Below are positions 73 through 36,765 of a DNA stretch of 64,000 bases, piece after piece. Under the pieces are notes generated by a model. It saw nothing but the letters and a program-made list of their open reading frames with translations. It did not search any database and had not been told where the DNA came from. The position numbers were made by a program, and so were the translations under genes. Source of the stretch: an uncultured virus (IMG/VR IMGVR_UViG_3300032288_005212) (Duplodnaviria; Heunggongvirae; Uroviricota; Caudoviricetes); IMG/VR virus record IMGVR_UViG_3300032288_005212, positions 32,001 to 96,000 of that record, one strand, 5' to 3'. How positions within the stretch are numbered: the stretch's first letter is position 1; every line of letters begins with the position of its first letter.

Positions 73-107
73 ACCTAGGTGCCAAATGAGAATAATTCTC
101 ATTTGGC
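73..107. promoter_or_regulatory. ACCTAGGT palindrome plus perfect 27-bp palindrome containing a Fur-box-like core
   Basis: ACCTAGGT at 73-80; GCCAAATGAGAAT-A-ATTCTCATTTGGC at 81-107 (13-1-13 inverted repeat); core AATGAGAATnATTCTCATT resembles proteobacterial Fur boxes. Confidence 0.6.
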
Positions 108-210
108 TGTCACTGCGCCAAATAGCGTGCAAAATCAAGAGTAAAAATTCACACTTGAACCTGGGCGGTGAGATGCTATACTGCTCAAGTCTAAACCGGA
201 GAGCCAAACC

Positions 211-447
211 ATGATGACTCGCTCGCAACACGCCGAACTCGCCGCAGAAGTCGCTGAGGCCGTAGTAAAGCCCACGCAAACCGTCGGGCAGGTGGCAGAG
301 CATATTTTTAATGCGGCTGAAGTCATGCGGAACATTATGCTTGATTCCGCAAACATGACGCAGCAGGAACTGCACGGGCATATCCAGTTTGCAACCGAAT
401 TGCAACGTGCATATGTACGTCGCGCAACTATGCTGGGGATACTCTGA
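211..447 (+). CDS. hypothetical pre-early protein
   Basis: ORF with GGAG RBS; upstream TTGAAC...TGcTATACT promoter-like site at 155-182. Confidence 0.65.
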   Translation: MMTRSQHAELAAEVAEAVVKPTQTVGQVAEHIFNAAEVMRNIMLDSANMTQQELHGHIQFATELQRAYVRRATMLGIL

Positions 448-548
448 TGCTGTATAATCTCGGCACACTGGTAATGCTTTTTACTGGCATACTAGTCTCG
501 GGGTATGTTGCTATAAAAATGCTCGAACACTACTTTGGAGAGTAAAAC

Positions 549-998
549 ATGAATTTTTCGATGACGATTGAGAATGCTACGGTTTCGACTGTCGTTCGGA
601 ACGAATACGAAATTATTCGGCATATCGAAGCCTGCTTTCTCGCGGCTGGATATGACTCCGATACTTTTGCTGAGTATCTGGCACACTATCTGGAGCTTTA
701 TCATGAGATGACGGTACTTCCGGAAAAAGAGTACACGCAGGCGCTCGCCGAAGCTCGGGAGGAAGCCTATGATGAAGGTTTCGATGATGCTACTGCCGAA
801 AAAAAGGAAGAGGCAGAATATGCCTGCAATTGCCCGATGTGCAAAGATCCCGTCGCCTATGATGCGGGCTGGAATGATGGATTCCAAGGCGAAGAAAATC
901 TCGACGAAGATATGGCAAAAATTCCCGCCTATATGGTAGGATACGAGAATGGAAAGATCGACCGAGAAAAAGGCCGCTACAATGGCGAAGCAATCTGA
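549..998 (+). CDS. acidic hypothetical protein
   Basis: GGAG RBS; very acidic 149-aa ORF with CxCxxC. Confidence 0.7.
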   Translation: MNFSMTIENATVSTVVRNEYEIIRHIEACFLAAGYDSDTFAEYLAHYLELYHEMTVLPEKEYTQALAEAREEAYDEGFDDATAEKKEEAEYACNCPMCKDPVAYDAGWNDGFQGEENLDEDMAKIPAYMVGYENGKIDREKGRYNGEAI

Positions 999-1009
999 GG
1001 AGTAATGAT

Positions 1010-1213
1010 ATGATCATCACGCGTATGTCGATTTTCTCTGGCAAGATTCACTCTTGGGATATTCCGGTAACGGAAGAGCAGATCGATCGCTGGCAGCGCG
1101 GTTGTCTGATTCAGAATGCGATGCCGCACTTGACTGCGGATCAGCGAGAGTTTATTATGACGGGCACCACTCCTGATGAGTGGAATCAAATGTTTGGGGA
1201 GGATGCAGCCTAA
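1010..1213 (+). CDS. hypothetical phage protein
   Basis: GAGGAG RBS; LIQNAMPHL..QREFIMTG.T..EW motif typical of small phage proteins. Confidence 0.7.
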   Translation: MIITRMSIFSGKIHSWDIPVTEEQIDRWQRGCLIQNAMPHLTADQREFIMTGTTPDEWNQMFGEDAA

Positions 1214-1437
1214 TGCACGCTTTTCAAATGAACTACGGTACAGTGGATATGGGAATGAATAAATATACACGGGCCGCGATTGCTTTGGGCGCTACCGTCG
1301 AGGACGGTATAAACTGGACGTGGGCAAATCATTTTGCCACGCGAGAGCTGGCTCAGGAATTTATCAATATGTTTCCTGAGATGGAAACACGCGGCATCTA
1401 TACTGATAGCCCGGGCTTTTCTGTGAGGTTTCGATGA
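1213..1437 (+). CDS. hypothetical protein
   Basis: TAATG coupling to upstream gene; ATGA coupling to downstream gene. Confidence 0.6.
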   Translation: MHAFQMNYGTVDMGMNKYTRAAIALGATVEDGINWTWANHFATRELAQEFINMFPEMETRGIYTDSPGFSVRFR

Positions 1438-1535
1438 AAAATCCTGTAGCAAAGTTTAGCCGCCAGGTCAACCGATCGGCGGTTCAGCGGGATCGTAAAA
1501 AAGCCGCAAAGCGCGGATATAGGAAACACAAATGA
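1434..1535 (+). CDS. 33-aa basic peptide (NPVAK...RDRKK...RKHK type)
   Basis: Translated by hand: MKNPVAKFSRQVNRSAVQRDRKKAAKRGYRKHK; ATGA overlaps on both sides; below ORF-track cutoff. Confidence 0.75.
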   Translation: MKNPVAKFSRQVNRSAVQRDRKKAAKRGYRKHK

Positions 1536-1867
1536 GAAACACAAAAAACTATCTTGCACTCGGGCACGATATTGAAGAAAACTTTTTCTTTATAAAGATT
1601 GGGTTATCTGATGACCCCGAAGAACGTGTATCTAAACTCAGAATGAAACTGCTACACGTTTGGGAAAACATATGGATATCTGATGGCGACTACTCTTGCA
1701 CAGTAGAAGCTTTTTTCTTAAAAACTATGGGTTACTCTCATTATACTTATAGTAACCATAAATTTTCAGGGTCATCCGATTGCATTGGAAGATTTAAAAC
1801 AAAAGAAGAAGCTTTATTCATTGGCAGGCAAATGGTAAAGTTTATTTTATCCCTTCAATATGACTAG
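1532..1867 (+). CDS. T5orf172/GIY-YIG-like nuclease domain protein
   Basis: Y...IKIGLS..PEER..L motif; more AT-rich than neighbours. Confidence 0.55.
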   Translation: MRNTKNYLALGHDIEENFFFIKIGLSDDPEERVSKLRMKLLHVWENIWISDGDYSCTVEAFFLKTMGYSHYTYSNHKFSGSSDCIGRFKTKEEALFIGRQMVKFILSLQYD

Positions 1868-1877
1868 GGCAGAAGGC

Positions 1878-2062
1878 CCGATGCGACCCATTCGCATCGG
1901 CGACCTAGGTCGTTGTTGAGAATCATTCTTATTTCCGCGCGGAGCGCCAATTATAGCGTGCAAAATCAACGGCGTCAAGTGTAAATGTGTGTAATATTGC
2001 ACAAACTCCAAATGAGTCTGGTTCTCATCTCGCACCTAGGGCGCGCCCCTGGCGCTTGTCAA
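1878..2062. repeat. intergenic block with two CCTAGG/Fur-like modules and a leftward sigma70 promoter
   Basis: hairpin CCGATGCGA..TCGCATCGG 1878-1900; CGACCTAGGTCG 1901-1912; TTGAGAATCATTCTTAT ~1916-1932; minus-strand TTGACG-17-TATAAT ~1950-1978; AAATGAGTCTGGTTCTCATCT 2010-2030; CCTAGG 2035-2040. Confidence 0.6.
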
Positions 2063-2267
2063 TAGGAAATATTTCACATTCCTGGGGGTGGATCTGCGGG
2101 CGGGGAGGCCTCATAATAGCGGCTTCTGGTGAGGGTTCACCGGAAACCGAAAGGGGAAGTCAATGGCAATATTCACACAAATTCGGAATGCGCTGCGGTC
2201 ATTCTTTCGGGTACAATGTGAAACATCGGTGGGGCAGTGTGCTTCACCCAAATCGGAGAGTAAAACT

Positions 2268-2579
2268 ATGTCGCTCTACACTGAGTCGATGGTGTCGGAA
2301 CTGATGGCTCGCGCGAGCTGGTCGTATGATGACGCGGTTGCGTTCGCTGAGAAGCATTCCAGCGTGTCGGTACGTTCGGTTATCAGCAAAATCAAGTCTC
2401 TGAAGCTGGACTACACCGCGAAGCCGAAAGCTGCGACGGCGAAGACTGACAAGGTGCGGAAGTCGGAGATCGTGGGCGAGATCGCACTCGCGCTCGGTAT
2501 TCAGGCTGACGCAATCTCGGGCCTTGCCAAGGCTGACGCCGCTTGCCTTCGCGTTCTTCTGGCGAAGGTTGCGGGCTAA
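2268..2579 (+). CDS. T5 A2-like DNA-binding protein (paralog 1)
   Basis: SVRSVISKIKSL..DY and VRKSEIV..IA...ISGLAKA motifs resemble T5 A2/D3; start moved to the ATG after GGAG RBS. Confidence 0.7.
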   Translation: MSLYTESMVSELMARASWSYDDAVAFAEKHSSVSVRSVISKIKSLKLDYTAKPKAATAKTDKVRKSEIVGEIALALGIQADAISGLAKADAACLRVLLAKVAG

Positions 2580-2779
2580 TGGTTCGGGTCGCTGCCATCT
2601 TGGGAACCGGGGCAATGTGCATTGCCCCCTTTTTCATCGACACGCTTCCTGGCAAATTGTGTGCCATATGCGGCCTGTTACTTTTGACAATACAGGCACT
2701 TGATCTGCGCGCTTACAATCTGGTACTCTTAAATCTGGTCGGCATTGCTGGCTACACTTTTTCAAGCATGGGAGCCTAG
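2579..2779 (+). CDS. small membrane protein
   Basis: TAATG coupling; hydrophobic, 2-3 TM-like segments. Confidence 0.6.
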   Translation: MVRVAAILGTGAMCIAPFFIDTLPGKLCAICGLLLLTIQALDLRAYNLVLLNLVGIAGYTFSSMGA

Positions 2780-2782
2780 AAT

Positions 2783-3259
2783 ATGTACCGCTCGATTTTT
2801 GATCTCGATGGGACTGTAATCGATTCCACACACCGCCACGCTACGCTGCCTGATGGGTCGCTTGATCTGGCACATTGGATTGAAAATTCCACGCCTGAGA
2901 AAATCGCTGCGGACTCTTTGCTGCCGCTTGCCGATTATATGCGGATGTTCTTCCCGCATCACGAGGTGCTGGTATGCACTGCCCGCGTGATGGGGGAAGC
3001 CGATTACGAATTTTTGTTCGATAACGGATTGCAGGCTGATGCGATTCTTTCGCGCCCTGCTGGCAACCGTCTGCCGGATGGGTTCCTTAAGGAAATGCTG
3101 CTGCGCGATCATGCAACACGCCGCGGCCTTACTTGGGTGGAATTTGTAAAAAATACCACGATCTTCGATGACAACGCTTCTGTGCTTGACACGCTCGGAC
3201 GGGTTGGAATTCGGACGATCTGCGCCCGCACTCTTAACCGGGTGCTGGCGGAGGACTGA
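2783..3259 (+). CDS. HAD-superfamily phosphatase (Pnk-phosphatase/nucleotidase-like)
   Basis: FDLDGT motif I, CTAR motif II, K and FDD motifs. Confidence 0.8.
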   Translation: MYRSIFDLDGTVIDSTHRHATLPDGSLDLAHWIENSTPEKIAADSLLPLADYMRMFFPHHEVLVCTARVMGEADYEFLFDNGLQADAILSRPAGNRLPDGFLKEMLLRDHATRRGLTWVEFVKNTTIFDDNASVLDTLGRVGIRTICARTLNRVLAED

Positions 3260-3273
3260 CACCGACCAGGTGC

Positions 3274-3328
3274 TGCGAATGGTTCTCATTCGCATTGCCG
3301 CCCTAGGTCGCCGACCTGGGCGTGTCAA
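3274..3328. promoter_or_regulatory. Fur-like box + CCTAGG module
   Basis: TGCGAATGGTTCTCATTCGCA 3274-3294; CCTAGG 3302-3307; minus-strand TTGACA at 3323-3328. Confidence 0.5.
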
Positions 3329-3405
3329 TAGGAAATAATACCGCTTAACTGGGATGTGCATCATGGTATACTCCACGTCCCAACTACTGCTCGGGAGAGC
3401 ATTTC

Positions 3406-4125
3406 ATGGCTAAAAAGCAATTCTATCTGATCATCGATACCGAAACGACAATCGATGAAAAAGTCGCAGATTTCGGTGCCGTTATCGTTGATCGGAAAGG
3501 CCGCATTGCTGCCCAATGTGGAATTCTCATTAATGGCATTTACAATGATCGGGAAAACCATCCGCTCTTTTATAATGAATACTCGGGCGACCTTTGGAAA
3601 AAGTCGAGCCTTGATAAGCGATATAATAACTATTCGGCAATGCTCGCCAACGGTTCCCGTATGCTCGCATCAATTCCTGCGATTAATACTTGGCTCGCAA
3701 AAGCGGCAAACAAGTTTAATCCCACACTGACCGCATATAATCTGGCATTCGATCTCGGTAAATGCGTCAATACTGGAATTGATCTTTCCTATTTCGAGAA
3801 TCGGTTTTGCCTTTGGCACGCTGCATTTAATAAATGGGCGCATACTAAAAACTATCGCAATTTCGCTCTACAAATGCACGCTTTTAATGCTCCGACTAAA
3901 TTGCAAAATATGTCGTTTAAAACGAATGCGGAAACAATGGCACGTTTTATTACTAATTCGCCCGATATGCCTGATGAACCGCATACCGCACTCGAAGACG
4001 CAATCTATTATGAATTGCCAATTCTGAAACGATTAATCGAAACGACAGAGCGTAATGTATTTATGAATCCCGAGCCTTTTGACTGGCGCAAGGTTCAGGT
4101 CAAAGATTGGTTTACCGCTAAATAG
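3406..4125 (+). CDS. DEDDh 3'-5' exonuclease
   Basis: IDTETT, AYNLAFD and HTALEDA motifs. Confidence 0.85.
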   Translation: MAKKQFYLIIDTETTIDEKVADFGAVIVDRKGRIAAQCGILINGIYNDRENHPLFYNEYSGDLWKKSSLDKRYNNYSAMLANGSRMLASIPAINTWLAKAANKFNPTLTAYNLAFDLGKCVNTGIDLSYFENRFCLWHAAFNKWAHTKNYRNFALQMHAFNAPTKLQNMSFKTNAETMARFITNSPDMPDEPHTALEDAIYYELPILKRLIETTERNVFMNPEPFDWRKVQVKDWFTAK

Positions 4126-4132
4126 GTGACAT

Positions 4133-4237
4133 ATGACAGAATTGGAAACTTTGAAAATGCGAATGGAAATTATTCGGACGGTTTGTCCGATTCTTTCCCT
4201 CATCCTTCAATTGATAATTCTGGGGCGTTTGATATGA
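4133..4237 (+). CDS. 34-aa single-TM peptide
   Basis: MTELETLKMRMEIIRTVCPILSLILQLIILGRLI; AGGTGA RBS; ATGA overlap with next gene. Confidence 0.6.
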   Translation: MTELETLKMRMEIIRTVCPILSLILQLIILGRLI

Positions 4238-4644
4238 AAATATCTAAATCCTTTCGCAATTCGCAACGCAAAATAATCGAGGCGGCTGTTAAAAATAGCC
4301 GCCTTGATTTGAATCTGCCCGATCTGCGCGATATTAAAGTAAAATCGAATAAATCAAAATCGCTCGACGGTTGGGCTGATGTTTCAAATGGGTATGCGGT
4401 AATTTCAATTAATCGCCGATTAAAAGGCGCGGAATTGTTTTGCTGCGTTGCACATGAAATGGTACACGTTAGCCAATTACTATCCGGCCGCCTTGTAACT
4501 GCCGCTCCGAATCTTTTTATCTGGAATGGAAAGGTTACGCGATTAACGGAGGAAAAAATGGCTAAAATGAATCCCGCAAAATATCGGGCATTGCCTTGGG
4601 AGCGGGAAGCATATTATTATGGCGATTCTTTTTTGGGAGATTAA
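4234..4644 (+). CDS. putative HExxH zinc metallopeptidase
   Basis: AHEMVH and PWEREAY motifs; start moved to ATG 4234. Confidence 0.75.
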   Translation: MKISKSFRNSQRKIIEAAVKNSRLDLNLPDLRDIKVKSNKSKSLDGWADVSNGYAVISINRRLKGAELFCCVAHEMVHVSQLLSGRLVTAAPNLFIWNGKVTRLTEEKMAKMNPAKYRALPWEREAYYYGDSFLGD

Positions 4645-4647
4645 AAC

Positions 4648-4794
4648 ATGGGACCGTGGCTTGTTTTGTTTGTCGGTTTGATTTATTTAATTATTGCGGC
4701 GGATTTTGCCTTTCGGAATAATAACTGGTGGATGGCATCCGTTTATTTTGGATATGCGTTTGCCAATGTGGGGCTTTTTCAAATAGGGAAATAA
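4648..4794 (+). CDS. 48-aa membrane protein
   Basis: MGPWLVLFVGLIYL...GYAFANVGLFQIGK; GGAG RBS. Confidence 0.65.
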   Translation: MGPWLVLFVGLIYLIIAADFAFRNNNWWMASVYFGYAFANVGLFQIGK

Positions 4795-4800
4795 TACCGC

Positions 4801-4852
4801 TTGACGCCAGGAGGGCGCGGGCCCTAGGTAGATGATGCGAATCATTCTCATC
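4801..4852. promoter_or_regulatory. TTGACG..CCTAGG + Fur-like box module
   Basis: TTGACG 4801-4806; CCTAGG 4823-4828; GATGCGAATCATTCTCATC 4834-4852. Confidence 0.55.
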
Positions 4853-4914
4853 TCGCTCCTAGCTTGCGCCTAGCAAGAACCATGCCAACATTTGTGGGAA
4901 TAATGCCAGCGCTT

Positions 4915-5104
4915 CGCGCCAGCCAGAGTGGGAAATCAATGTCAAGTTGCGTACGTGCAATTTTATTGGGAATTTTTCACATACTTGTCTCCGCGCCAGC
5001 GTACCACAGTGCGAAATCAATGTCAAGTAAGAAAGACAAAGAACATATGTGAATTTTTCTCAGGTCTGCGCCATTATACGAGTGCGAAATCAATAATGTC
5101 AAGT
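4915..5104 (-). repeat. three promoter-like repeats GCGCC...GAAATCAAT(AAT)GTCAAGT
   Basis: copies at ~4915-4947, 4992-5028, 5066-5104; on the minus strand copies 2 and 3 read TTGACA-17/18-TACGCT/TATAAT-GGCGC; copy 1 lacks a -10. Confidence 0.7.
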
Positions 5105-5225: not shown

Positions 5226-5522
5226 ATGAGTGCTTATTCTAATTCGATGGTCACCGAGCTCTGCGCCTCCGCGCACACTTATGAAAGCGCAGCAGCTTTT
5301 GCTAGCAAGCACAATCTGTCGACGCGCAGTGTTGTGAGCAAGATCAAGTCGCTTGGCCTGGACTATAGGAAAAAAGAAGTAGTTTCTGTTAGCCAGACGC
5401 GGATTCGGAAGGCTGACGTGGTTGCAGAGATTGCCGCCCGGCTTTCGCTTGACAGCGAAAAGTTGGCGGGGCTGGGGAAAGCGGACGCTGCTAGTTTGCA
5501 GCAGCTTTTGAAAGCTATTTAA
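5226..5522 (+). CDS. T5 A2-like DNA-binding protein (paralog 2)
   Basis: clearly homologous to 2268-2579 (AFA.KH..S.RSV.SKIKSL.LDY; RK..V.EIA; GL.KADAA.L). Confidence 0.75.
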   Translation: MSAYSNSMVTELCASAHTYESAAAFASKHNLSTRSVVSKIKSLGLDYRKKEVVSVSQTRIRKADVVAEIAARLSLDSEKLAGLGKADAASLQQLLKAI

Positions 5523-5733: not shown

Positions 5734-6033
5734 ATGTATACAGAAGATGAAGTAACTATTCTACAGCAATATCCGAGTCTTTCCGTGGAAGAACTGGCAG
5801 CTCAGCTGGGACGCAGTGAGAGATCAATTATTGGAAAGCTGAGTCGCCTGGGAATTTATCAGCGAAAAACCTATGTGAGCAAAACTGGTTCACCACCCAT
5901 TAGCAAACTGGAAATTGTGGCTGAGATAGAGTCTGCATTGCAGATGAAGCTTGAAGGGCTAGAAAAGAGTCCAAAAGGTGTATTGCTTTCTTTGCGAGAT
6001 AAACTGAGCGGCGGGGCATTTCCAAATTGCTAG
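5734..6033 (+). CDS. A2/D3-like HTH DNA-binding protein (paralog 3)
   Basis: VEELAAQLGRSERSIIGKLSRLGIY HTH; ISKLEIVAEI..LEGLEK; GGAGG RBS. Confidence 0.7.
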   Translation: MYTEDEVTILQQYPSLSVEELAAQLGRSERSIIGKLSRLGIYQRKTYVSKTGSPPISKLEIVAEIESALQMKLEGLEKSPKGVLLSLRDKLSGGAFPNC

Positions 6034-7709: not shown

Positions 7710-8186
7710 GAAGATGAAATCTTCCGAGGATGCGAGGGGGGAACAGCCTAAGTGTGGTCTTACGTTCGCCCCCCTCGCTGGGGAAAAGGGGAGAGGTTTC
7801 TAACGAACCACCTCTCTAAAACGTGTTGCCTAGGACTGTAATGGAATACACTAGGACTGTCCATCAGAAGAAATTAGATAACCCATCTTCTTTCTTCCTA
7901 CGGCCTCGAGGGCGCTGCTTTTTTGATACGGAAAGTTGTAAACCGGCGTTTTTTCAAAACTGCAAAAATAAGACAGTTCACGCAATGTCAATTCGGCGTT
8001 TATACAAAACTGCAAAAGGAACAAGGGATTTCTGTTCAATTGTATCTCCGTCGAGATAGCACCCTGGTATGAGTTAAAATATAAGGCGAATATCCGGTTT
8101 AATATTCATTAATCTTTTATCTCTTAACTGGAAGAGGCCCTAACAACCTTTTTAACTCAATTCGAACTCCCTTTCTCTCACAACAT
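7686..8186 (-). ncRNA. candidate ~500-nt structured ncRNA
   Basis: bounded by consensus promoter (8193-8221) and terminator; many stems; no ORF with RBS. Confidence 0.5.
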
Positions 8187-8970: not shown

Positions 8971-9194
8971 TTTTCAGCCATCCGACTGACAGCTTCAACA
9001 GCATCATTTGATGTTGTGTTCGCTTCGACGGCGAGAGCTTTTGCTTCAACGGCGAGAGCCTTTGCTTCTTCGGCAACAACTCGCGCATCAAGAGCAGCAG
9101 CCATCGCCTGCTTGCTTTCCGTAATCTCTACCGTTGGTCCTTCCGTGGTGCAGCCTACCAAAGTGAGTGCCGCTACTAGTGCAAAATACTTCAT
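8955..9194 (-). CDS. Lpp/OprI-family alanine-zipper lipoprotein
   Basis: lipobox LVGC, EAKALAV heptads, C-terminus RMAEKCCRK like OprI RMLEKASRK. Confidence 0.75.
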   Translation of the reverse strand: MKYFALVAALTLVGCTTEGPTVEITESKQAMAAALDARVVAEEAKALAVEAKALAVEANTTSNDAVEAVSRMAEKCCRK

Positions 9195-9333
9195 TCATAC
9201 TCCTTTTCAATTATCTTAGCCGTTAGCTCTATTGCATATTCATGCGAAAGAGCAAATTGCTTTACAAGTTCATTTACAATATCATCAAAAGGTTCGTGCC
9301 ACATCTCGAGCACTACAGCTTCAATTTCTGGAT

Positions 9334-9600
9334 TCATCGTCCAATATCTTTTATATTCTCTCTGCTAATAACCTGGTAAGCACCTTTGTTATAAGCAATC
9401 GCAACAGTGTACTTCGAACTCACTTCCTTTTGATAAGAAAGATCCTTAGGCTCCACATATTTTCCAATAGGTGCAGAAGGAATCTTGCTCTCTGCTTTGC
9501 GATTACTAGAGACTTGCAGAGGAACAAACGGAGCTCGAGGCTTCCTTGCCCGAGCAGTTTTACGACGCTTTGAAGGCATCGGATTTACATAGACCATCAT
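9334..9600 (-). CDS. hypothetical phage protein
   Basis: YTVAIAYNKGAYQVI motif common in large phages. Confidence 0.7.
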   Translation of the reverse strand: MMVYVNPMPSKRRKTARARKPRAPFVPLQVSSNRKAESKIPSAPIGKYVEPKDLSYQKEVSSKYTVAIAYNKGAYQVISRENIKDIGR

Positions 9601-9746
9601 CGGCCTTGACCTCGATACGCTTTGTAAGACCTCCTCTGTGTTTTATTCATTGAAGAAGTCTTAACCATCGCAGGGTTGCCGCTGACAGCGGTCTTCTTCG
9701 GTGGATTAGTTTTAGTCTTCTGATTACCAGTACCAATTCTTGCCAT
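9597..9746 (-). CDS. 49-aa basic peptide (YRGQG C-terminus)
   Basis: MARIGTGNQKTKTNPPKKTAVSGNPAMVKTSSMNKTQRRSYKAYRGQGR, translated by hand. Confidence 0.7.
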   Translation of the reverse strand: MARIGTGNQKTKTNPPKKTAVSGNPAMVKTSSMNKTQRRSYKAYRGQGR

Positions 9747-13437: not shown

Positions 13438-13717
13438 GTTTACTCCTTGCGCGAATGGCGGCAGCTTTAATGTCAAGAAGCTCGACACCTTCTTCACCAC
13501 CAATGTATCCCCATATAGCGTCGCGGCGGTGTTCTTCATCTGGCTCTACCAACTTCGCACACGCTTCCCGCTCATGCGCTGCGATGAGGGCGGCAAACTT
13601 CTCTAGCTGTACTATACCCATCATCCAGACTGTGTTCTGAGATGGCAGTGCAACTTCTGCGTAAGGCTCTTCTGAGATAGCCTTTCGTGCCATCTCAATT
13701 AGATTAAGACGATTCAT
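13427..13717 (-). CDS. hypothetical (AAHEREACA family)
   Basis: paralog of 13704-13964; AAGGAG RBS. Confidence 0.65.
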   Translation of the reverse strand: MNRLNLIEMARKAISEEPYAEVALPSQNTVWMMGIVQLEKFAALIAAHEREACAKLVEPDEEHRRDAIWGYIGGEEGVELLDIKAAAIRARSKHES

Positions 13718-23277: not shown

Positions 23278-24053
23278 AATTTATATGTTTCGCACAGTTA
23301 AGAAATGAGCTAGAGAATGGAAATTTAGAGTTGTGGCTTCAACAACAGACTTCTCTATGCGATAAGATTTATGTGTACGATCAAAACTCAACCGATGGAA
23401 GCAAAGATTTATATAAAAAATATAAAAATCTTGAAGTAATCTACTCAGATAAAAATGATTTTGGAAATGAGATAGTTTGTAAACACCAGTTACTTCAACT
23501 ACTGCAGAAAAATGAAGGCTATGATAATATCATTTTTTGGATAGACGGCGATACTTTTATTGATACAACTTTTGATAGACAAAATATAGAAAATATTTTT
23601 GCACAAACCGAATTAACACACTTACGCTTACGACACTATAATCTATGGAGAAGCGATACATTTTATAGAACAGATGGAAAATATCATAACTTATATAGAA
23701 ATGGAGTAGTTGCTTTATGGAAAAACTCTCCTGATTTAAGTTTTAATCCTCGTTCTGGACTTCATACACAAGTAGCCCCAGATAGGTTAAATAGTCAAAA
23801 TAACCATGGATTAATTGAAACCTCACTGATTCATCGTGGGTTTGCAACTGATTTTCAAATAATTAAAAGATATAAAACATATAAAAGTTTTGGTCAAACC
23901 GGATATAGATTAGAAATGCTATTAGATGAACAAAATTTATCTGTTACACAACTTGATATAAATTTGGTCCCAACATTTATACCAAAAAATTTAGACAGCC
24001 CCATAGGTAAAGAGTTAATTTTAGAAAAATATAGGAGAGGGTGCTTAGAATGA
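23274..24053 (+). CDS. GT2-like glycosyltransferase
   Basis: RNE, YDQNSTDGS, WIDGD. Confidence 0.75.
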   Translation: MKFICFAQLRNELENGNLELWLQQQTSLCDKIYVYDQNSTDGSKDLYKKYKNLEVIYSDKNDFGNEIVCKHQLLQLLQKNEGYDNIIFWIDGDTFIDTTFDRQNIENIFAQTELTHLRLRHYNLWRSDTFYRTDGKYHNLYRNGVVALWKNSPDLSFNPRSGLHTQVAPDRLNSQNNHGLIETSLIHRGFATDFQIIKRYKTYKSFGQTGYRLEMLLDEQNLSVTQLDINLVPTFIPKNLDSPIGKELILEKYRRGCLE

Positions 24054-24628: not shown

Positions 24629-25347
24629 AAAATATAGAAGTCATATCCCTAATCTTTAAGTCTGTAGACTATTTAGATTTTATTGTTAATCAATTAAAAA
24701 CAAACTGTAAAGCCGAAGGATGGGACGTAGGAGTACGCATTGTAGCTAATGATGCCAATGAAAAAGTTTTACATAGATTAAAAGATAGCGATATACCTTA
24801 TTCTATTTATAATGATCCATATCCAGATCAATATTACTTAAATAGAGTTTATAGATGCTGGAATTTTGCCGGTAAAAGTTCCGAGTATGATAACATATGT
24901 TTTGTAAATTCCGATATGGCGTTTAGCACTAATTGGCTAACTAACTTGCTAAAATTTCATGATGGAAAAAATATACCTACTAGCAGATTGGTTGAAAGCG
25001 GAAAAATGTTAAGTGGTATGCACGGCATTAGCTATGACTGTGGCAAACACCCTAAAATCTTTGATGCATCAAAGTGGGAATCTTATGCTGAAGAAATCAA
25101 AGAAAATACTTGCCACAACGGTGGACTTTATATGCCATGTATATTTGAAAAATCAAGGTTTATAGAGAGCGGAATGTACCCTGAGGGAAACATATACGTT
25201 GATGGGGTTGGAACCTGTAACGGTAGAAAAATTTGTAGTGGCGATAGATGGTTTTTTAATAATTTAGAACAAAACTTTGGGATGAAACATATTACTGTGT
25301 TTAATTCTTTAGTGTATCATATACAGGAAGGTGAAATGGATGATTAA
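24625..25347 (+). CDS. GT-A fold glycosyltransferase-like protein
   Basis: WN.AG, FVNSDM, SGD..F, YH.QEGE. Confidence 0.6.
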   Translation: MKNIEVISLIFKSVDYLDFIVNQLKTNCKAEGWDVGVRIVANDANEKVLHRLKDSDIPYSIYNDPYPDQYYLNRVYRCWNFAGKSSEYDNICFVNSDMAFSTNWLTNLLKFHDGKNIPTSRLVESGKMLSGMHGISYDCGKHPKIFDASKWESYAEEIKENTCHNGGLYMPCIFEKSRFIESGMYPEGNIYVDGVGTCNGRKICSGDRWFFNNLEQNFGMKHITVFNSLVYHIQEGEMDD

Positions 25348-29511: not shown

Positions 29512-30533
29512 AGTGCTTAGTTATATTGGGGACTAGACCCGAAGCAATAAGGTTATACCATACTATAAAAGAACTTAATCCTTACAAAATATTTTGGACA
29601 GGCCAAAATTTTTCCAAGAATTTAAGTACAGATATTATTCAAGATCCTAGATTTGATAATATTTATAAAGATATGGTATTGTCTTCTATAGAAGAAACAG
29701 ATTTTTTTCAACAATTTACAAAAATGTTGTTAAATATCGATAGTTTTATAAAACAATGTAGCCCAGACAAAATTTTAATTCTAGGAGATACTAACTCTAG
29801 TTTAGCCGCTGCTTTAGCTGCTAAAAAGAATGATATTCCGTTATACCATATGGAAGCTGGGAATAGATGTTATAACCCCAAATCTCCGGAAGAGATTAAT
29901 AGGAGAATGATAGATAGTATCGCTGACGTACATTTATGCTATACTAAATTCGCTAAACAAAACTTATTAAATGAAGGTGTGCCGCTAAATAAAATTCATG
30001 TAATTGGTAACCCAATGGCCGAGTTTCCAGAACTCCATTCATATGATACAAAAGAAAAAAGTCAGGTACTGGTTACTTTACATAGAAAAGAGAATGAAGA
30101 GTATTTACCGAATTTACTTAATTTTTTTAATAGTTTAAATTCTAAAGTCAAAGTTAAATTAGTATTACATCCAAGATATTATAAATTTTTTACTGAAAAA
30201 TTTACCGATGTGGTTCCAAGCGTAAACTTTTCTGATTTTGTAAAGTTACAGCAAGAGTCGAGCTTAATAATAACAGATTCTGGTACCGTATGTGAAGAAG
30301 CCGCTATTCTTAAAAAACCTTGCCTAATAATAAGAGAAACAACAGAGAGACCAGAACTTTTAGAGTTAGGTAGCACAATTTTGGGGGATATAAAAAACAC
30401 AGATAATCTATTAAGCAGCTCAGACGCTTTATTAAATTTAACACGAGACTGGGACTTACCAGATGAGTACAAGTATCAAAAAGTTTCTAAGAAAGTAAAA
30501 ACTATTCTATTAAGTAAGCAAAACTATATATGA
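29508..30533 (+). CDS. UDP-N-acetylhexosamine 2-epimerase (WecB/FnlC-like)
   Basis: GTRPE, LGDTNS, HMEAGNR, PEEINR, TLHR.EN, TDSG..EEA, TERPE. Confidence 0.93.
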   Translation: MKCLVILGTRPEAIRLYHTIKELNPYKIFWTGQNFSKNLSTDIIQDPRFDNIYKDMVLSSIEETDFFQQFTKMLLNIDSFIKQCSPDKILILGDTNSSLAAALAAKKNDIPLYHMEAGNRCYNPKSPEEINRRMIDSIADVHLCYTKFAKQNLLNEGVPLNKIHVIGNPMAEFPELHSYDTKEKSQVLVTLHRKENEEYLPNLLNFFNSLNSKVKVKLVLHPRYYKFFTEKFTDVVPSVNFSDFVKLQQESSLIITDSGTVCEEAAILKKPCLIIRETTERPELLELGSTILGDIKNTDNLLSSSDALLNLTRDWDLPDEYKYQKVSKKVKTILLSKQNYI

Positions 30534-31249
30534 TAAATTTACAAAAGTTAAGCCTAGAAGAACTTAGAGATAGTTTTACAACCTCTTACCCATTTAATTA
30601 TTTGGTTCTGGATAATTTTCTTGAGGAGAAAATAGCGGACAGCATATTAAACGATTTAAATACTGATGACTATTCGACTTGGGATAAGAGAGCCGATGCT
30701 GGAGTACAAGTAAAAGATCGTTCCAATTGGAAGAATGATGCGGATGTGCCGCAGTCTACAAGAAATTTAATTCAGTACTTAAACTCAGGAGATTTTTTAC
30801 GGTGGCTATCAGAAGCCACAGGCATTCAAGGAATTATTCCAGACCCGTATCTTACCGGAGGAGGGTTTAATAAAATTAATAGGGGCGGCACTCTTGCTAT
30901 ACACGCTGACGGTAATTGGCATGATTTGATGGCAGTACACCGCAGGCTTAATTTAATTATATACCTAAATAAAAATTGGTTGCCAGAATGGGGCGGCAAT
31001 CTTGAGCTATGGTCTAATAAAGATAGTAGGCCAGATAAATGTGAAAAAGAAATTGAGCCTTATTTTAATAGGCTGGTATTATTTAAAACTGATGATTACA
31101 GTTTTCATGGCCACCCAAAGCAACTAAACTGCCCAGAAAATGTTTCAAGAAAATCTTTGATATTGTATTATTATACAAGCACCAGACCCAGTACAGAAGT
31201 TGAGTCTTTAGAGAATAAGCACAGAGCTATATTTCATAAATCCGTATAA
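30530..31249 (+). CDS. 2OG-Fe(II) oxygenase (prolyl-hydroxylase-like)
   Basis: HAD..H triad, RRLNLIIYLN..W..EWGG.LELW, R.S. Confidence 0.85.
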   Translation: MINLQKLSLEELRDSFTTSYPFNYLVLDNFLEEKIADSILNDLNTDDYSTWDKRADAGVQVKDRSNWKNDADVPQSTRNLIQYLNSGDFLRWLSEATGIQGIIPDPYLTGGGFNKINRGGTLAIHADGNWHDLMAVHRRLNLIIYLNKNWLPEWGGNLELWSNKDSRPDKCEKEIEPYFNRLVLFKTDDYSFHGHPKQLNCPENVSRKSLILYYYTSTRPSTEVESLENKHRAIFHKSV

Positions 31250-31260
31250 GAGGAAAAATA

Positions 31261-32241
31261 ATGTTTAATAATTCTACTGTATTAATAACTGGCGGCACTG
31301 GTTCTTGGGGTCAAACACTAACCACAAAATTAATTGAACTATATAGCCCTAAAAAAATTATTATATTTTCTAGGGGAGAATTACAACAAGTATTAATGCA
31401 AAGAAAGTTTAATAATCCTATTATCCAATATATAATAGGAGACGTAAGAGACTATGAAGCTATAAAATTTGCTACACTTGGCGTAGATTATGTTTTTCAC
31501 CTGGCTGCATTGAAACACGTTCCAATATGTGAAAATCAACCACAAGAAGCTATAAAAACTAATATAACAGGCACTACAAATGTTATCAATGCAGCAATAC
31601 TTAATAAAGTAAAAAAAGTAATAGATGTATCTACAGATAAAGCAGTAGACCCTATTAATTTATATGGTATGACAAAGGCTGTAGGAGAAAAAGCAATAAT
31701 TCAAGCAAACGACCTCAGCTCGCATACAAAATTTGTATGCGTGCGCGGAGGAAACGTAATGGGATCAAACGGTAGTGTGATTCCATTTTTCATAGAGCAG
31801 ATTAAATCTGGCGGACCAATTACTATCACAGACTCCAATATGACTAGATTTTTCTTAACTTTAAATGAAGCTATTGGATTATTATTTAAAGCAGCAGAAG
31901 ATAGCATTGGAGGAGAAACATTTGTTATGAAAATGCCTTCTTGCTACATAGAAGATATCGCGTCTATCCTAATGCAAAAATACGGTATAGTGCCTATAAA
32001 GGATATCGGTATGAGGCCAGGGGAAAAGCTAGATGAAGTACTAATCTCAAAAAATGAGGCTAATCTATCTTACTGCTATGATGATAATTACTATGTTATT
32101 CTACCAAATGTTTATAATAATTTGTTAAATGAGAAGTATTCTAACTTAGAAGTATTCCCTTACGAAGAATTTTCGTCAAGCACATTTATCATGAACGACG
32201 AAGAAATCTCTTCTATGTTGTCTAAGGGAGGATTCCTGTGA
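31261..32241 (+). CDS. UDP-GlcNAc 4,6-dehydratase (FnlA/PseB/CapD-like)
   Basis: TGGTGS.G, AALKHVP, STDKA..P.N.YG.TK, GNV.GS.GSVIP, MTRF, RPGEK. Confidence 0.93.
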   Translation: MFNNSTVLITGGTGSWGQTLTTKLIELYSPKKIIIFSRGELQQVLMQRKFNNPIIQYIIGDVRDYEAIKFATLGVDYVFHLAALKHVPICENQPQEAIKTNITGTTNVINAAILNKVKKVIDVSTDKAVDPINLYGMTKAVGEKAIIQANDLSSHTKFVCVRGGNVMGSNGSVIPFFIEQIKSGGPITITDSNMTRFFLTLNEAIGLLFKAAEDSIGGETFVMKMPSCYIEDIASILMQKYGIVPIKDIGMRPGEKLDEVLISKNEANLSYCYDDNYYVILPNVYNNLLNEKYSNLEVFPYEEFSSSTFIMNDEEISSMLSKGGFL

Positions 32242-33017
32242 GCATTTTAGTGTTGGGCGGGGAAGGTATGGCAGGTTGGATGATCGGAAATTTCCTGTCT
32301 AGAAAACACTCTGTATTAGTAACTACACGAGCAGATTTTGATGTTGAGAAAAGTTTAAAGCTTCCTGCAGGGTTTGATTACATAGTAAATTGTATAGGAC
32401 TACTTTTGAACGACTCTAAAATTAACCCTGCAAAAACAATGTATGTTAATTCCTATTTTCCAAAATACCTGGAAAGGTTCTATAGAGATAGCAATACTAA
32501 AATAATACATTTATCTACAGATTGTGTATTTAACGGTACCAAAGGAAATTATCTAGAAACAGATTTGCCAAATGAGCTTGGAGTATATGGTTTGTCGAAG
32601 TCTCTAGGTGAGATAGATAATAATAAAGATTTAACTCTAAGGGTTAGCATTATAGGCCCAGAGATAAGGCATCCAAGCAAAAGAAGCGGGCTTTTAAATT
32701 GGATACTTACTACAAAAGAAACACAACTAAACGGCTGGGTAAATGCACATTGGAATGGGATTACAACTTTAGAATTAGCTAAGTGTATAGACCAGTTTAT
32801 AAAAAACCCAATAATTAGTGGAATATATCACCCAACTAATGAAACTATAACTAAGTACGAATTGCTAAATAAAATAAATTATAAATATAATTTGGGAAAA
32901 GTTATAGTAAAATCTAATGCAGAAAAAAATATTGATAAAACTTTGCGGAATACAAAAGGATTTTTTAACGTATCATCTTATGATACACAGTTGGAAGAAT
33001 TAAGAGCGTATATATGA
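32238..33017 (+). CDS. RmlD-like 4-keto-sugar reductase
   Basis: G..GMAG, HLSTDCVF.G..G.Y.E, YG.SK..GE, WNG.TT. Confidence 0.85.
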   Translation: MSILVLGGEGMAGWMIGNFLSRKHSVLVTTRADFDVEKSLKLPAGFDYIVNCIGLLLNDSKINPAKTMYVNSYFPKYLERFYRDSNTKIIHLSTDCVFNGTKGNYLETDLPNELGVYGLSKSLGEIDNNKDLTLRVSIIGPEIRHPSKRSGLLNWILTTKETQLNGWVNAHWNGITTLELAKCIDQFIKNPIISGIYHPTNETITKYELLNKINYKYNLGKVIVKSNAEKNIDKTLRNTKGFFNVSSYDTQLEELRAYI

Positions 33018-33697
33018 AAAAACTATGTACTGTTTGCGATAGCGTGTATTTTAATGAACACGCAATAAAATTAATTAATTCTGTGGAGAACTTACAAGCG
33101 ACGTCTTTGATAGCTATAGTCGTTAATCCTAATTTGGATGATATAGCTACGATGAAAAAAATAAATTCATCTGCTAAAAATACGGTATGTAATTATGTTG
33201 TAGATAGTAGAGATACAAAAACTTTTTTTGCTTCTGCTAGATACATTTATTCTGCTGATATTGTAAGAGAGTACGAGTTAGAGGGTATTATGTTCCTAGA
33301 CTCAGATTCTTTAGTTCTAAAAGAAGTAGAGTACCCTAGTACAGACTTTGGGCTATTTTTAAGAGAACCATTTCCGAATACGACCGGAGTAGTAAAAGAA
33401 GGATCCTATGTACTTGGATCCAGCGTTTATATATCAAAAACTGGGATAGAGTTTGCGGAATATCTTCGGCAAGAGTTAAACTCTTATACTCTTGATACCT
33501 GGTATCTAGATCAGGTTGCATTATGGAGAGGGTATCAACTTTATAAAGATAAATTAAGTTTTACACAGTTAGATAAAAGTTACTTAGATTGGGATTTTGA
33601 TGTAAACAGTACGATATGGAACGCAAAAGGCCCTAGAAAATATAGTGATAAAAATTACATACTAAAATCCAGACAATTTCATAATTCTCCTTTCTGA
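33014..33697 (+). CDS. nucleotide-diphospho-sugar transferase-like protein
   Basis: FLDSDS DxD, W.LDQ.AL, W..KGPRK. Confidence 0.6.
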   Translation: MKKLCTVCDSVYFNEHAIKLINSVENLQATSLIAIVVNPNLDDIATMKKINSSAKNTVCNYVVDSRDTKTFFASARYIYSADIVREYELEGIMFLDSDSLVLKEVEYPSTDFGLFLREPFPNTTGVVKEGSYVLGSSVYISKTGIEFAEYLRQELNSYTLDTWYLDQVALWRGYQLYKDKLSFTQLDKSYLDWDFDVNSTIWNAKGPRKYSDKNYILKSRQFHNSPF

Positions 33698-33709
33698 GGT
33701 AAAAATAGT

Positions 33710-33738
33710 TTGACATATTTTGCTTAACCGTATATAAT
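33710..33738 (+). promoter_or_regulatory. sigma70 promoter
   Basis: TTGACA-17-TATAAT, perfect consensus. Confidence 0.9.
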
Positions 33739-33763
33739 ATGTTTTTCGCAAAGTATACTTACC

Positions 33764-34354
33764 ATGAATTTATTTTATCTTGATGAAGACCTCGATAAGT
33801 GCGCCGAGTACCATGTTGACAAGCACGTCAATAAAATGCAGCTAGAAACTGCACAAATGATTTGTACAAATCTTTGGATTGATAGACTACTCGGCTATGT
33901 GCCTCGCGCACTTAATAAGGAAGAGAATAGAGTTCTTACGCAAGCAAGACTTGCTGAGAAGGATCTTCCTATTGAAGAGAGAACTATTCCATATCTTCCA
34001 ACTATGCAGAATCATCCCTGCACTATTTGGATGCGTACATCTCTCGATAACTTTGAGTGGTCGCACTGCTATGCCAACGCGCTCAGTTCCGAGCAACATT
34101 ATCGCTACGGCACTACGCACAAGTCTATTCTGATTATCAATGCATTGCCAGACCCAAAAAATATTCCGAGCATCGGCTTTACAACATTTGGACTCGCAAT
34201 GCCAGACTCTCTCAAAAATTATGACGATCCGATCGGATCTTATCGAATGTACTATATGCTAGATAAAGGTACATTTGCTTCTTGGAAAAAGCGATCAAAG
34301 CCACCCTGGTGGGATGAAAACATCGCAGACTATGAAAAAAGGATTACAAGATGA
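33764..34354 (+). CDS. pyrimidine-dimer DNA glycosylase (DenV)-like protein
   Basis: MNLFYLD..C...H.DKHV.KM.LE.AQM; NHPC..W; AMPD; YR.YY. Confidence 0.75.
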   Translation: MNLFYLDEDLDKCAEYHVDKHVNKMQLETAQMICTNLWIDRLLGYVPRALNKEENRVLTQARLAEKDLPIEERTIPYLPTMQNHPCTIWMRTSLDNFEWSHCYANALSSEQHYRYGTTHKSILIINALPDPKNIPSIGFTTFGLAMPDSLKNYDDPIGSYRMYYMLDKGTFASWKKRSKPPWWDENIADYEKRITR

Positions 34355-34569
34355 TTTGCAAGAATTGTGGAGAAGATCTTTCTGGTGATGGAGAAAAGAT
34401 ACCTTTTCATTGTATAAACCTTTCCGAAGAAGATTGGTGGTATGAACCACCAGATTCCGGCCCCTATTATTGTGACCAGTATCTTGATGATACTGATGAT
34501 GGATTTGCATTAGCTTCTGCCGGTTTCGGAACTGATGAAGACTACGGCTATTTTGGCGATTATGACTAA
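34351..34569 (+). CDS. small acidic Zn-finger-like protein
   Basis: CKNCG; DDG.ALASAG.GTDEDYG. Confidence 0.6.
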   Translation: MICKNCGEDLSGDGEKIPFHCINLSEEDWWYEPPDSGPYYCDQYLDDTDDGFALASAGFGTDEDYGYFGDYD

Positions 34570-34721
34570 TCTTATTTTGGAAAAGGGAAAGTATAAACTT
34601 TACTGCTTTTACCATCCAGAAAGACATTTCGCTATCTATGAAAAAGATATTGCAGTATTTTTAACAAAATACGAAAAAGAAGCAATACGAGTTTTTTCAC
34701 AACTTACAAAAGGAAAATAAT

Positions 34722-35378
34722 GTGGCTAGAGTAAAAGCAAAAGATTACGAAGATCTCAGCGATTCGAATATTCGTAAAGTAATTGCAGCGCTTAACGCTT
34801 CTCCGCCTATCTCAAAAAAAGAAGCGTGCGAAGCTCTTAAAATTTCTTATAATACTAGCCGTCTCTCGAAAATTATCGAAGAGTTTACTGCAACTCAAGA
34901 AAATAAAAAACGTCTTCGAGATAAAAAAAGAGGACTACCTGCTACAAATGGTGAAATTCAATATATTATAAAAGACTACATTAATGGAGTCCCTCTTTAT
35001 AAAATTTCTGAAGATCTTTATCGACCAACGAACTTTATAAAAGCAGTTGTAGATAAAATCGGCGTTCCAGAAAGAGAGCCTAGCTTTAGTCGTTTGAAAG
35101 CACAACTTCTTCCTGATAACTGCCAAGCCATTGATTTTGAAGAAGGAGAGATTGCATGGTCCGCTACTGAAAGAGCAAAATGCAAAATTCTCAAAAGACT
35201 AGACGATGATAAGTACATTCCAAAATATGGAGTACCGTGCTATAACATTTTTGTATTTGAGCAATCTGATGATTCCTACTACTCAAAGAGTAAAGGATTT
35301 TATGCTGCTGCTCTCGCCTATGACCTGGGCAAGCTGACTCATCTTGAGCAGTATGGAATAAATTTAAATGATCTTTGA
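34722..35378 (+). CDS. T5 D2-like protein
   Basis: KKEACE.L.I.YNT.RL motif; position at start of the T5 replication module. Confidence 0.75.
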   Translation: MARVKAKDYEDLSDSNIRKVIAALNASPPISKKEACEALKISYNTSRLSKIIEEFTATQENKKRLRDKKRGLPATNGEIQYIIKDYINGVPLYKISEDLYRPTNFIKAVVDKIGVPEREPSFSRLKAQLLPDNCQAIDFEEGEIAWSATERAKCKILKRLDDDKYIPKYGVPCYNIFVFEQSDDSYYSKSKGFYAAALAYDLGKLTHLEQYGINLNDL

Positions 35379-35613
35379 GTATTACCTTATATTTTCGATA
35401 ACAACGGGATTATGTATTGTCTGGTTAAATAGACAGGCGAAGATTCAAAGCGGAATTGAACATTCTACTTTTATATTCTACATTGTCTCTTTTTTAATAG
35501 CATTTTTATTTGCGCCTGTATTTTTTCTAATCTTTTTATTTTACTCGACGGGATATAGAAGCGGGATTTTAGAAGCAATGAAAAACACTTATAACGAGAA
35601 AAATAGTTCTTGA
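35368..35613 (+). CDS. membrane protein
   Basis: two hydrophobic segments; lies between D2 and D3. Confidence 0.6.
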   Translation: MIFEYYLIFSITTGLCIVWLNRQAKIQSGIEHSTFIFYIVSFLIAFLFAPVFFLIFLFYSTGYRSGILEAMKNTYNEKNSS

Positions 35614-35665
35614 CTTTGAAGCTCAAATATCTTATAATATCTTTCATACGGTGAGGGAAAGATAG

Positions 35666-36118: not shown

Positions 36119-36131
36119 TGTAGTGTCTTTG

Positions 36132-36165
36132 AAAACCCCGATAGTTTTCCGCTATCGGGGTTTTT
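36132..36165 (+). terminator. intrinsic terminator
   Basis: AAAACCCCGATAG-7-CTATCGGGGTTTTT. Confidence 0.8.
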
Positions 36166-36227
36166 CCGCATCTCGACATATTAGCAACGAGGAAAGAGGT
36201 TTCTTACAATGCAATATGGAGTAATAT

Positions 36228-36491: not shown

Positions 36492-36765
36492 CATATATAG
36501 TAGAATAATAACTAATGATGGTTTTAAACAAGTTCGGTTATACATAAATGAATTTCGAGAGCAAGAATATCTTCACATTCGTGAGTATTATCTCGATTTT
36601 GACGAAGAATGGAAACCTACACCGAAAGGAATATCTATTCCACTTGAGATAGAAACATCAAAAGAATTATTCATTGCAATATCAGAAATTCTTTCGCTAG
36701 CCGAAAGTAAGAAAGTTGTCGAAGAGGTATTTGGCGACTTAATAAAGAGCATATATACTTCATGA
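36484..36765 (+). CDS. PC4-like ssDNA-binding protein
   Basis: RL.INEFR..YLHIREYY...EEWKPT.KGI. Confidence 0.8.
   Translation: MNDIYSRIITNDGFKQVRLYINEFREQEYLHIREYYLDFDEEWKPTPKGISIPLEIETSKELFIAISEILSLAESKKVVEEVFGDLIKSIYTS

Follow-up and report, generated by a model that had tools for sequence, protein, structure and literature searches.

The pre-early-like gene block of the uncultured virus IMGVR_UViG_3300032288_005212 (hereafter G000) raises the question of which protein reads a compound DNA element, the hexamer CCTAGG joined at a fixed distance to a Fur-box-like palindrome, that recurs in the gaps between its small genes. The window analyzed is a stretch of 64,000 bp, bases 32001-96000 of one 106,084-bp IMG/VR virus record (38.7% G+C), and the block, a run of small plus-strand genes of about 8.5 kb (genome 28.8-37.3 kb, window -3200 to 5300), begins upstream of it; four long T5-like relatives are referred to as G001-G004. 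An earlier note, made on the letters of this window, had described five such sites and had proposed host Fur as their reader. The element is real, strongly selected and lineage-specific, and it is a dispersed variant of the repeats of T5 first-step transfer, arranged around a Fur-type operator. As to its reader, the modules may be operators through which host Fur gates transcription across the gaps, a reading to which we give, on the sequence, about an even chance.

G000 carries seven CCTAGG-N6-WTGMGAATNATTCTCAT modules, the general form of which is CCTAGG, 6 bp and a 7-1-7 Fur-type operator (TGMGAAT-N-ATTCKCA). Five of them lie in the window, each where the earlier note had placed it, and two more lie just upstream (genome 30004 and 31065), so that its count of five holds for the window and becomes seven for the genome. 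All modules are in non-coding gaps of the block, and every sizeable gap has one, six gaps over about 7 kb. Module 1 (74-107, plus strand) lies 9 bp past the stop codon of the upstream gene and consists of CCTAGG at 74-79, a 6-bp spacer and a box at 86-102, the latter within a perfect 27-bp palindrome at 81-107. Module 2 (1881-1932, plus strand) is symmetric, with a degenerate box at 1881-1897, N6, CCTAGG at 1904-1909, another N6 and a box at 1916-1932. Modules 3 and 4 are inverted and read on the minus strand: module 3 (2012-2040) has its box at 2012-2028 and CCTAGG at 2035-2040, with a minus-strand TTGACA 17 bp before CTAGGT, while module 4 (3273-3307) has a nested palindrome at 3273-3295 and CCTAGG at 3302-3307, with a minus-strand TTGACA 16 bp before CTAGGG. 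Module 5 (4802-4887, plus strand) starts with TTGACG at 4802-4807 and a 17-bp GC-rich spacer, followed by CCTAGG at 4823-4828, N6, the box at 4835-4851, N6 again and CCTAGC at 4858-4863. When the seven copies are aligned, CCTAGG does not vary, the 6-bp spacer is free in sequence, and the box retains the core TG-GAA...A...AT.

With up to 3 mismatches allowed, the window has 8 boxes where 0.86 would be expected, a count that none of 100 shuffles reached; a degenerate 15-mer at up to 1 mismatch has six matches in the genome, all inside the 8.5-kb block. The hexamer itself is not enriched in the window (6 versus 7.0 expected); the departure from randomness lies in where CCTAGG stands and in its constant spacing of 6 bp from a box. 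All eight genome copies fall within 30004-39829, and seven of the eight stand 6 bp from a box. The sole box-less CCTAGG is found in a CTAGGACTGT direct repeat in an ORF-poor stretch (ORF, open reading frame) at window 7829-7870. Avoidance of CCTAGG as a restriction site was also considered and rejected: the other 94 kb have 0 copies versus 2.7 expected under a Markov model (z -1.6), which is no outlier among palindromic hexamers.

Conservation was examined in a metagenome scan with the composite pattern, which returned 19 contigs, 16 of them 74-92% identical to G000 and carrying modules at the same sites. These module-bearing close relatives come from the metagenome scan only: the composite pattern had no match in IMG/VR, a DNA similarity search of the phage and IMG/VR collections gave no useful close relative, and a search of the same collections with one pre-early protein gave no match. 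Among the 40 unique module copies from G000 and the 16 relatives, CCTAGG is invariant (40/40) at 2.0 bits per position, compared with 1.55 bits for the box, 0.66 for the spacer, the length of which is fixed at 6 bp, and 0.2-0.45 for the flanks. This profile indicates that CCTAGG, the box and the distance between them are under purifying selection. The modules are kept in the 16 relatives while the intervening genes are swapped or lost, and one and the same site can change the kind of its upstream element from one relative to another. Of the checks that the earlier note had named, enrichment over shuffled sequence and conservation in related phages speak for the element, and a chance origin is ruled out by the shuffles, the clustering and the conservation among relatives together.

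A full-text search with the core sequence led to the Fur consensus AATGAgAATcATTctCATT of Xanthomonas campestris and to Fur sites of Enterococcus faecalis (TGAGAATGATTCTCA). Shorter sub-strings of the core also occur in an Acinetobacter iron-limitation study. Functional Fur sites of X. campestris have been reported to match the Fur-box consensus AATGAgAATcATTctCATT at 14-17 of 19 positions (Blanvillain et al. 2007, PMC1790865), and the seven G000 boxes match this consensus at 14-18 of 19; the best of them, with 18, is the box of module 1, a site kept in six related contigs. The G000 boxes and the X. campestris consensus have in common the AT-rich 19-bp 9-1-9 palindrome with its 7-1-7 core (the 7-1-7 model of bacterial Fur boxes is TGATAATnATTATCA), and G000 boxes, like bacterial ones, are close to start sites of promoter-like elements. 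Moreover, the exact 21-bp palindrome is present in at least 120 bacterial contigs from many phyla (one genome per species scanned), and ten sampled neighbor genes include three TonB-dependent receptors, two metal/iron-binding proteins and one ABC ATPase. The sampled bacterial loci carry 18 further boxes versus 0.85 expected, including TGCGAAT half-sites. By its sequence, the box is a Fur-type operator, and the likeness pointed out in the earlier note is borne out by both the consensus and the bacterial neighborhoods. The G000 boxes differ from bacterial Fur boxes in that they are carried by a lytic phage and adjoin no iron gene, are tied to CCTAGG at a fixed 6 bp, and in several copies lack a convincing promoter. 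A search for a Fur gene found none in G000 and none in G001-G004; any Fur-family protein that binds the boxes would therefore have to be supplied by the host.

Each module is part of a larger cassette. On the CCTAGG side, some copies have a sigma-54 -24/-12 consensus, which places CCTAGG at the predicted start, others have TTGACA at a distance of 15-17 bp, and others have neither. Next to the box comes GCGCC, which is followed by a GTGCAAAATCAA motif or by a backward sigma-70 promoter, and then by the forward promoter of the next genes. Three perfect predicted sigma-54 sites (CTGGCACG-N4-TTGCA) are present on the plus strand at genome 28915-28930 (L001 8915 in the numbering of the sequence upstream of the window), 29980-29995 and 31040-31055, a trio within 2.2 kb where about 0.006 would be expected in the genome; they have the -24 GG and -12 GC elements of the consensus TGGCACG-N4-TTGCW. 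The sites at 29980 and 31040 lie 8 and 9 nt before CCTAGG, and in G000 and its relatives the spacing is 8-9 nt to CCTAGG and 20-21 nt to the box, a geometry kept in the relatives while the spacers drift. A further sigma-54-like site with 1 mismatch (4872-4887, minus strand) reads into box 5 from the far side with the same 20-nt spacing. These sites share their -24/-12 elements with sigma-54 (RpoN) promoters and differ in that the phage has no activator gene: no sigma-54 activator ATPase (PF00158) was found in G000, no upstream activator site was recognized at its sigma-54 sites, where a host activator is possible, and no sigma-54 site in G000 directly precedes an ORF. Similar sites are present in related T5-like contigs, among them three in tandem in G003 (60055-60128).

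The flank beyond the box contains a repeated string, GCGCCAAnTATAGCGTGCAAAATCAA, that reads as a sigma-70 promoter on the opposite strand. There are three strong backward sigma-70 promoters in G000 (window 1978-1950 and 5102-5073, genome 30081-30052), all directed through GGCGC into a box. The first (1950-1978, minus strand; TTGACG-17-TATAAT, 11/12) runs leftward through TGGCGC into box 2, and the consensus promoter of the unit at 5047-5102 (minus strand; TTGACA-18-TATAAT, 12/12) is followed by GGCGC and a degenerate box at 5047-5063 with 3 mismatches; this unit is the third of three direct repeats at 4915-5100. All three backward promoters have the layout TATAAT-(c)GGCGC-N5-19-box, which puts the box at about +6 to +30, and the order TATAAT-GGCGC-box is also found in other T5-like contigs. 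After box 1, a GCGCCA...GTGCAAAATCAA motif is present at 112-140 (plus strand), with more copies behind other boxes near 1943-1970, 4915-4940, 4996-5020 and 5068-5095. Of the seven copies of GTGCRAAATC in the genome, six are in the block, at a distance of 30-45 nt past a box. GGCGC directly follows backward -10 elements at window 112-140, 1943-1970 and 4915-5100 and at L001 10040-10085 and 11124-11150. These GGCGC motifs could, by analogy, be nick sites of the T5 type, since the major T5 nick beside its box array is likewise at GCGC.

The earlier note had also seen, at three copies, a TTGAC hexamer with CCWGG in the spacer, and this feature is indeed present at sites 3, 4 and 5, 16-17 bp before CTAGG, and is kept in relatives. 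Overall, TTGACA stands 15-17 bp from CCTAGG in most copies and 7 bp away in one subfamily, and other copies have no TTGACA. CCTAGG as a sigma-70 -10 element was not adopted because of the 7-bp spacing in that subfamily, the missing T at -7 and an invariance far beyond that of a -10.

The closest comparison is with T5 itself (NC_005859), in which all eight Fur-type matches fall in the two terminal repeats. At T5 9540-9720 (L270), an array of six AAATGAGAATCATT-type Fur-box units lies inside the annotated injection stop signal (iss), beside the calculated first-step shear point at 9618 and the major nick at 9748, and is followed by nine GTGCRAATCCGAC (DRD) repeats. This Repeat Region 3/iss has been described by Heusterspreute 1987 and Wang 2005, as cited by Davison (bioRxiv 10.1101/866236), where the DnaA boxes of the region are discussed for 25 T5-like phages and proposed to stop injection, and where Fur is never mentioned. 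No literature linking T5 entry DNA to Fur was found, with older T5 papers not covered. Both systems consist of non-coding repeats and palindromes in pre-early DNA with the boxes limited to that region, and while the T5 units are followed by a GCGC nick and GTGCRAATCCGAC, the G000 boxes are followed by GCGCC and GTGCRAAATC; the GTGCAAAATCAA motif of G000 also resembles the T5 DRD repeats. Each G000 gap therefore resembles a small T5 Repeat Region 3, and the G000 cassette can be regarded, by analogy, as the dispersed counterpart of the T5 Fur-like array, GCGC nick and DRD repeats. The differences are that the T5 units form a dense array near the inner repeat end, whereas those of G000 are single, dispersed and each joined to CCTAGG, and that paired DnaA boxes are a feature of T5, the terminal repeat of which is free of sigma-54 sites, whereas G000 does have sigma-54 sites, and DnaA boxes (TTWTNCACA) are neither enriched in its block (3 versus 1.4 expected) nor paired. 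Sites for CRP, FNR, LexA and MetJ are not enriched in the block either.

Fur-type boxes were also found in other viral contigs. An IMG/VR scan with the box alone found at least 118 contigs, in which the center base is nearly always G or C and several of which have 2-4 copies; among the matches listed, about a dozen contigs are T5-like by shared genes, 69 of 118 share no protein with G000, and A2-like matches are confined to the T5-like ones. When four long contigs with T5-like PolA (42-60% identity) were scanned whole, G002 was found to have 9 clustered boxes in 8.6 kb, G003 to have 6 in 5.6 kb, and G004 to have 9 matches, most of them at 9154-9664 of a direct terminal repeat of about 10 kb and in the repeat copy. 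In Aeromonas phage AhSzq-1 and Providencia phage PR1, Fur-type boxes are likewise limited to the terminal-repeat/pre-early region. The partner palindrome varies by lineage, being CCTAGG in G000, a MetJ-box-like tandem in G002 and TTGACAAGTAGCTTGTCAA in G003. In G002 (L146), CTAGACGTCTAGACGTCC, which we take to be close to two tandem MetJ boxes, stands beside Fur-type boxes at 23570-23600 and 25120-25140, and perfect DnaA boxes (TTATCCACA) are nearby.

The genes of the block bear on where this DNA lies in the phage life cycle and on which phage proteins might bind it. The DNA polymerase (PolA) of G000 is 43% identical to Demerecviridae (T5-like) polymerases, and the genome also has T5-like replication genes, tRNAs and a permuted tmRNA. 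The block has 47.6% G+C versus 38.0% in the remaining genome, starts at a divergent junction with minus-strand late genes and sits between late and early genes. Its plus-strand genes for an A2-like DNA-binding protein (2268-2579), a small membrane protein with two transmembrane segments (2579-2779) and a dmp-like HAD phosphatase (2783-3259) mirror the order A2, T5.005, dmp of the T5 left terminal repeat. Two further A2-like paralogs, both on the plus strand and both candidate phage-encoded box binders, are found at 5226-5522 and 5734-6033, and all three align with T5 A2 (phrog_1725), the identity between T5 and G000 being just 26%. The third paralog (5734-6033) scores 27.3 bits against the Pfam GcrA model, for which the cut-off is 26.9, and has a further match to a D5-like regulator PHROG; the T5 A2 family may share a GcrA-type DNA-binding domain. 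Given this synteny and the alignment of the paralogs with T5 A2, it is reasonable to regard the block as the counterpart of the T5 pre-early region, as the earlier note did. That it is also the first-injected DNA we can only infer, because the G000 record is without end repeats (IMG/VR class "linear"); placement in a terminal repeat is based on the T5 synteny, on the position of the block between late and early genes, and on the boxes in the terminal repeats of G004 and T5.

If host Fur is the reader, metal-loaded dimers of the host Fur-family repressor would bind the box and, since it covers about +1 to +30 of the facing promoter-like elements, would block those promoters; bound Fur would also impede transcripts that run on from one pre-early operon into the next. 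In this way the transcription of the first-entering DNA would be tied to the iron status of the host. The box stands directly behind the backward promoters, and it coincides with or follows the start of the sigma-54 and TTGACA-type elements; such a placement appears to be that of a repressor operator or roadblock. A universal host factor is favored by the fact that most box-bearing viral contigs share no protein with G000, and such a factor would account for the same box occurring despite 26% A2 identity and in phages without an A2-like gene in the stretch examined. In addition, A/C changes occur in one arm with no matching change in the other, and the fold energies vary widely, both of which speak for a bound protein and not for a hairpin. 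Of the earlier reasoning for host Fur, the Fur-type sequence and the pre-early placement hold, joined now by the boxes in the T5 iss; its argument from FhuA, the Fur-regulated receptor of T5, is not transferable to an aquatic phage with 43% PolA identity to T5-like phages, and its suggestion of Fur titration fares no better, as discussed below. The sigma-54 sites, the backward sigma-70 promoters and the parallel with the T5 iss had escaped the earlier note.

Several observations weigh against host Fur. The lineage profile differs from typical Fur logos: the third base of the half-site, which is A in Fur boxes, is divided almost evenly between A and C, and the fourth, G, is invariant in the lineage and weakly conserved in Xanthomonas. 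CCTAGG at a fixed 6 bp is outside any Fur model, which suggests a second or different reader. Sites 1 and 2 are without a recognizable promoter on the CCTAGG side, and just three of the backward promoters are strong. Two further changes hint that the arms pair with each other. Beside box 1, a single change has affected both sides (A..T to G..C), and the central 7-mer of site 4 (GGTTCTC, plus strand) is the exact reverse complement of that in four relatives, between 8-bp inverted arms, a loop inversion typical of palindrome template switching or cruciform processing. Moreover, three A2-like DNA-binding paralogs are encoded in the same block. The element is also dispensable, for neither box nor CCTAGG is present in the shorter block of the nearest long IMG/VR relative, G001 (PolA 76%), which encodes two A2 paralogs. 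G001 retains the minus-strand sigma-54-like site of module 5, and just past the last gene of its block it has another perfect palindrome, GTTTCACGTGAAAC (13503-13520, L027); a different palindrome in a phage without boxes suggests that palindromes are interchangeable between lineages.

The three A2-like paralogs of the G000 block are the candidates if the reader is phage-encoded: an A2-like protein with a GcrA-like helix-turn-helix, or a complex reading CCTAGG and the box together, would bind the module, and the likeness to Fur would be convergence or mimicry. T5 A2 is annotated in the T5 genome as a DNA-binding protein needed for second-step transfer, and the T5 boxes lie in the iss region; all three A2 homologues of the block align with T5 A2 and one of them passes the GcrA threshold, and both the fixed CCTAGG-box spacing and the invariant G next to a variable A/C are atypical of Fur. 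This alternative is weakened by G001, which has two A2 paralogs and no box, and by the absence of an A2-like gene from most of the box-bearing viral contigs listed, 69 of the 118 sharing no G000 protein at all. The same box in T5 and G000 despite the low A2 identity, and the identical sequences at bacterial iron-uptake genes, also speak against it, and we give it a low probability, below that of host Fur. A mainly structural or recombinational role is less probable still. Comparable to the PeSLs of T4-type phages, the modules would be repeated palindromic cassettes between small, non-essential early genes and would terminate transcripts or act as junctions at which gene cassettes are shuffled, with CCTAGG as the junction or cleavage site. 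According to Arbiol et al. 2010 (PMC2839356), PeSLs combine strong promoters with stem-loops and bring about modular shuffling, and they share with the G000 cassettes the combination of sigma-70 promoter and palindrome, repeated between small variable early genes, as well as homology breakpoints between relatives at the cassettes. In G000, 9 of 87 homology ends fall at the outer CCTAGG edge of sites 2 and 5 versus 2.1 expected (five contigs at site 2, four at site 5); the box and spacer of site 2 are mosaic, being identical in a 77%-identical relative and different in a 90%-identical one; different phages have different upstream elements at the same site; and the loop inversion of site 4 and the two-sided arm change of site 1 point the same way. 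However, breakpoints were seen at two of the seven sites only and are not independent, PeSL stem-loops are GC-rich terminators unlike host operators whereas the G000 palindrome is AT-rich and operator-type, and in G000 the adjoining strong promoter is backward and sigma-54 sites are also involved. No intrinsic terminators are predicted in the module gaps. An RNA hairpin as the common denominator was rejected, as fold energies differ greatly among the seven copies (z -3.8 to +1.4) and many arm changes go uncompensated; no Rfam family matches within the block. A mere recombination repeat would have no need to equal a host operator, nor would its spacer drift beside a perfect CCTAGG, and a role in recombination is in any case compatible with protein binding.

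Host proteins might also act here without regulating transcription in the first place. Fur and sigma-54 RNA polymerase, with DnaA or MetJ in relatives, could form a structural complex that pauses, holds or protects the first-entering DNA, transcription being secondary. The T5 Fur-like array flanks the calculated shear point at 9618 in the iss, Davison's proposal (10.1101/866236) already assigns the stopping of injection to host DnaA boxes, sigma-54 sites without a phage activator gene would fit closed, non-transcribing complexes, and G002 has its tandem MetJ-box-like and DnaA-box sequences beside its boxes. This idea sits poorly with G000 modules spread over 7 kb between genes and not massed at the inner block end, with DnaA boxes that are unenriched in G000, with the absence of a sigma-54 site from the T5 terminal repeat, and with G001, which manages without boxes; its chance is slim. 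Titration of Fur had been offered in the earlier note; as decoys of this kind, which would release host iron uptake or the phage receptor from repression, the boxes are hardly credible. There are seven high-quality boxes per genome in DNA present early, in two copies in T5-like phages, while a cell has thousands of Fur molecules, a pool that the few sites on one incoming genome cannot deplete, and a decoy has no need for fixed positions relative to promoters and CCTAGG.

The stop and restart of T5 DNA transfer have posed an unsolved problem for some 60 years; of the stop region that acts in cis, no more has been known than a tangle of repeats. The present results bear on it in that these repeats include good Fur-type operators, that in distant uncultured relatives strict selection maintains Fur-type boxes in this compartment of the genome, and that sites for other host factors, sigma-54 among them, accompany the boxes; concrete host proteins are thereby named for the T5/Escherichia coli system. 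If Fur gating is true, it would be an example of a lytic phage that reads the iron status of its host as early as the first step of infection. A broader conjecture, which we put forward with little confidence, is that T5-like phages load their first-entering DNA with host Fur, to which aquatic lineages add closed-complex sigma-54 RNA polymerase and enteric ones DnaA, as part of the two-step pause and hold, and that in the G000 lineage CCTAGG is the target of a phage nuclease or recombinase for cutting or exchanging cassettes at these complexes. The invariant CCTAGG and the cassette breakpoints also provide a lead on how sets of pre-early genes are shuffled.

Other features of the genome concern the host and the edge of the block. 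A permuted, two-piece tmRNA is encoded at window 43504-43803 with the tag ANDDVYFEDIRLAA (Rfam RF04321, 93.7 bits), which together with the GcrA-like paralog hints at a host among the alpha- or beta-proteobacteria; comparison of the tmRNA with 401 genomes gave short matches only, and the exact box is unsuited to point to a host, as it is present in too many phyla. At the block edge, a very basic 95-residue protein (phrog_7595; genome 27927-28214, minus strand; L001 7927-8214) is weakly like a minor head or DNA pilot protein and looks like a virion or DNA-pilot component. It is 53-76% identical to ORFs of about ten otherwise unrelated box-bearing viral contigs, in which these ORFs lie 1-7 kb away from the boxes.

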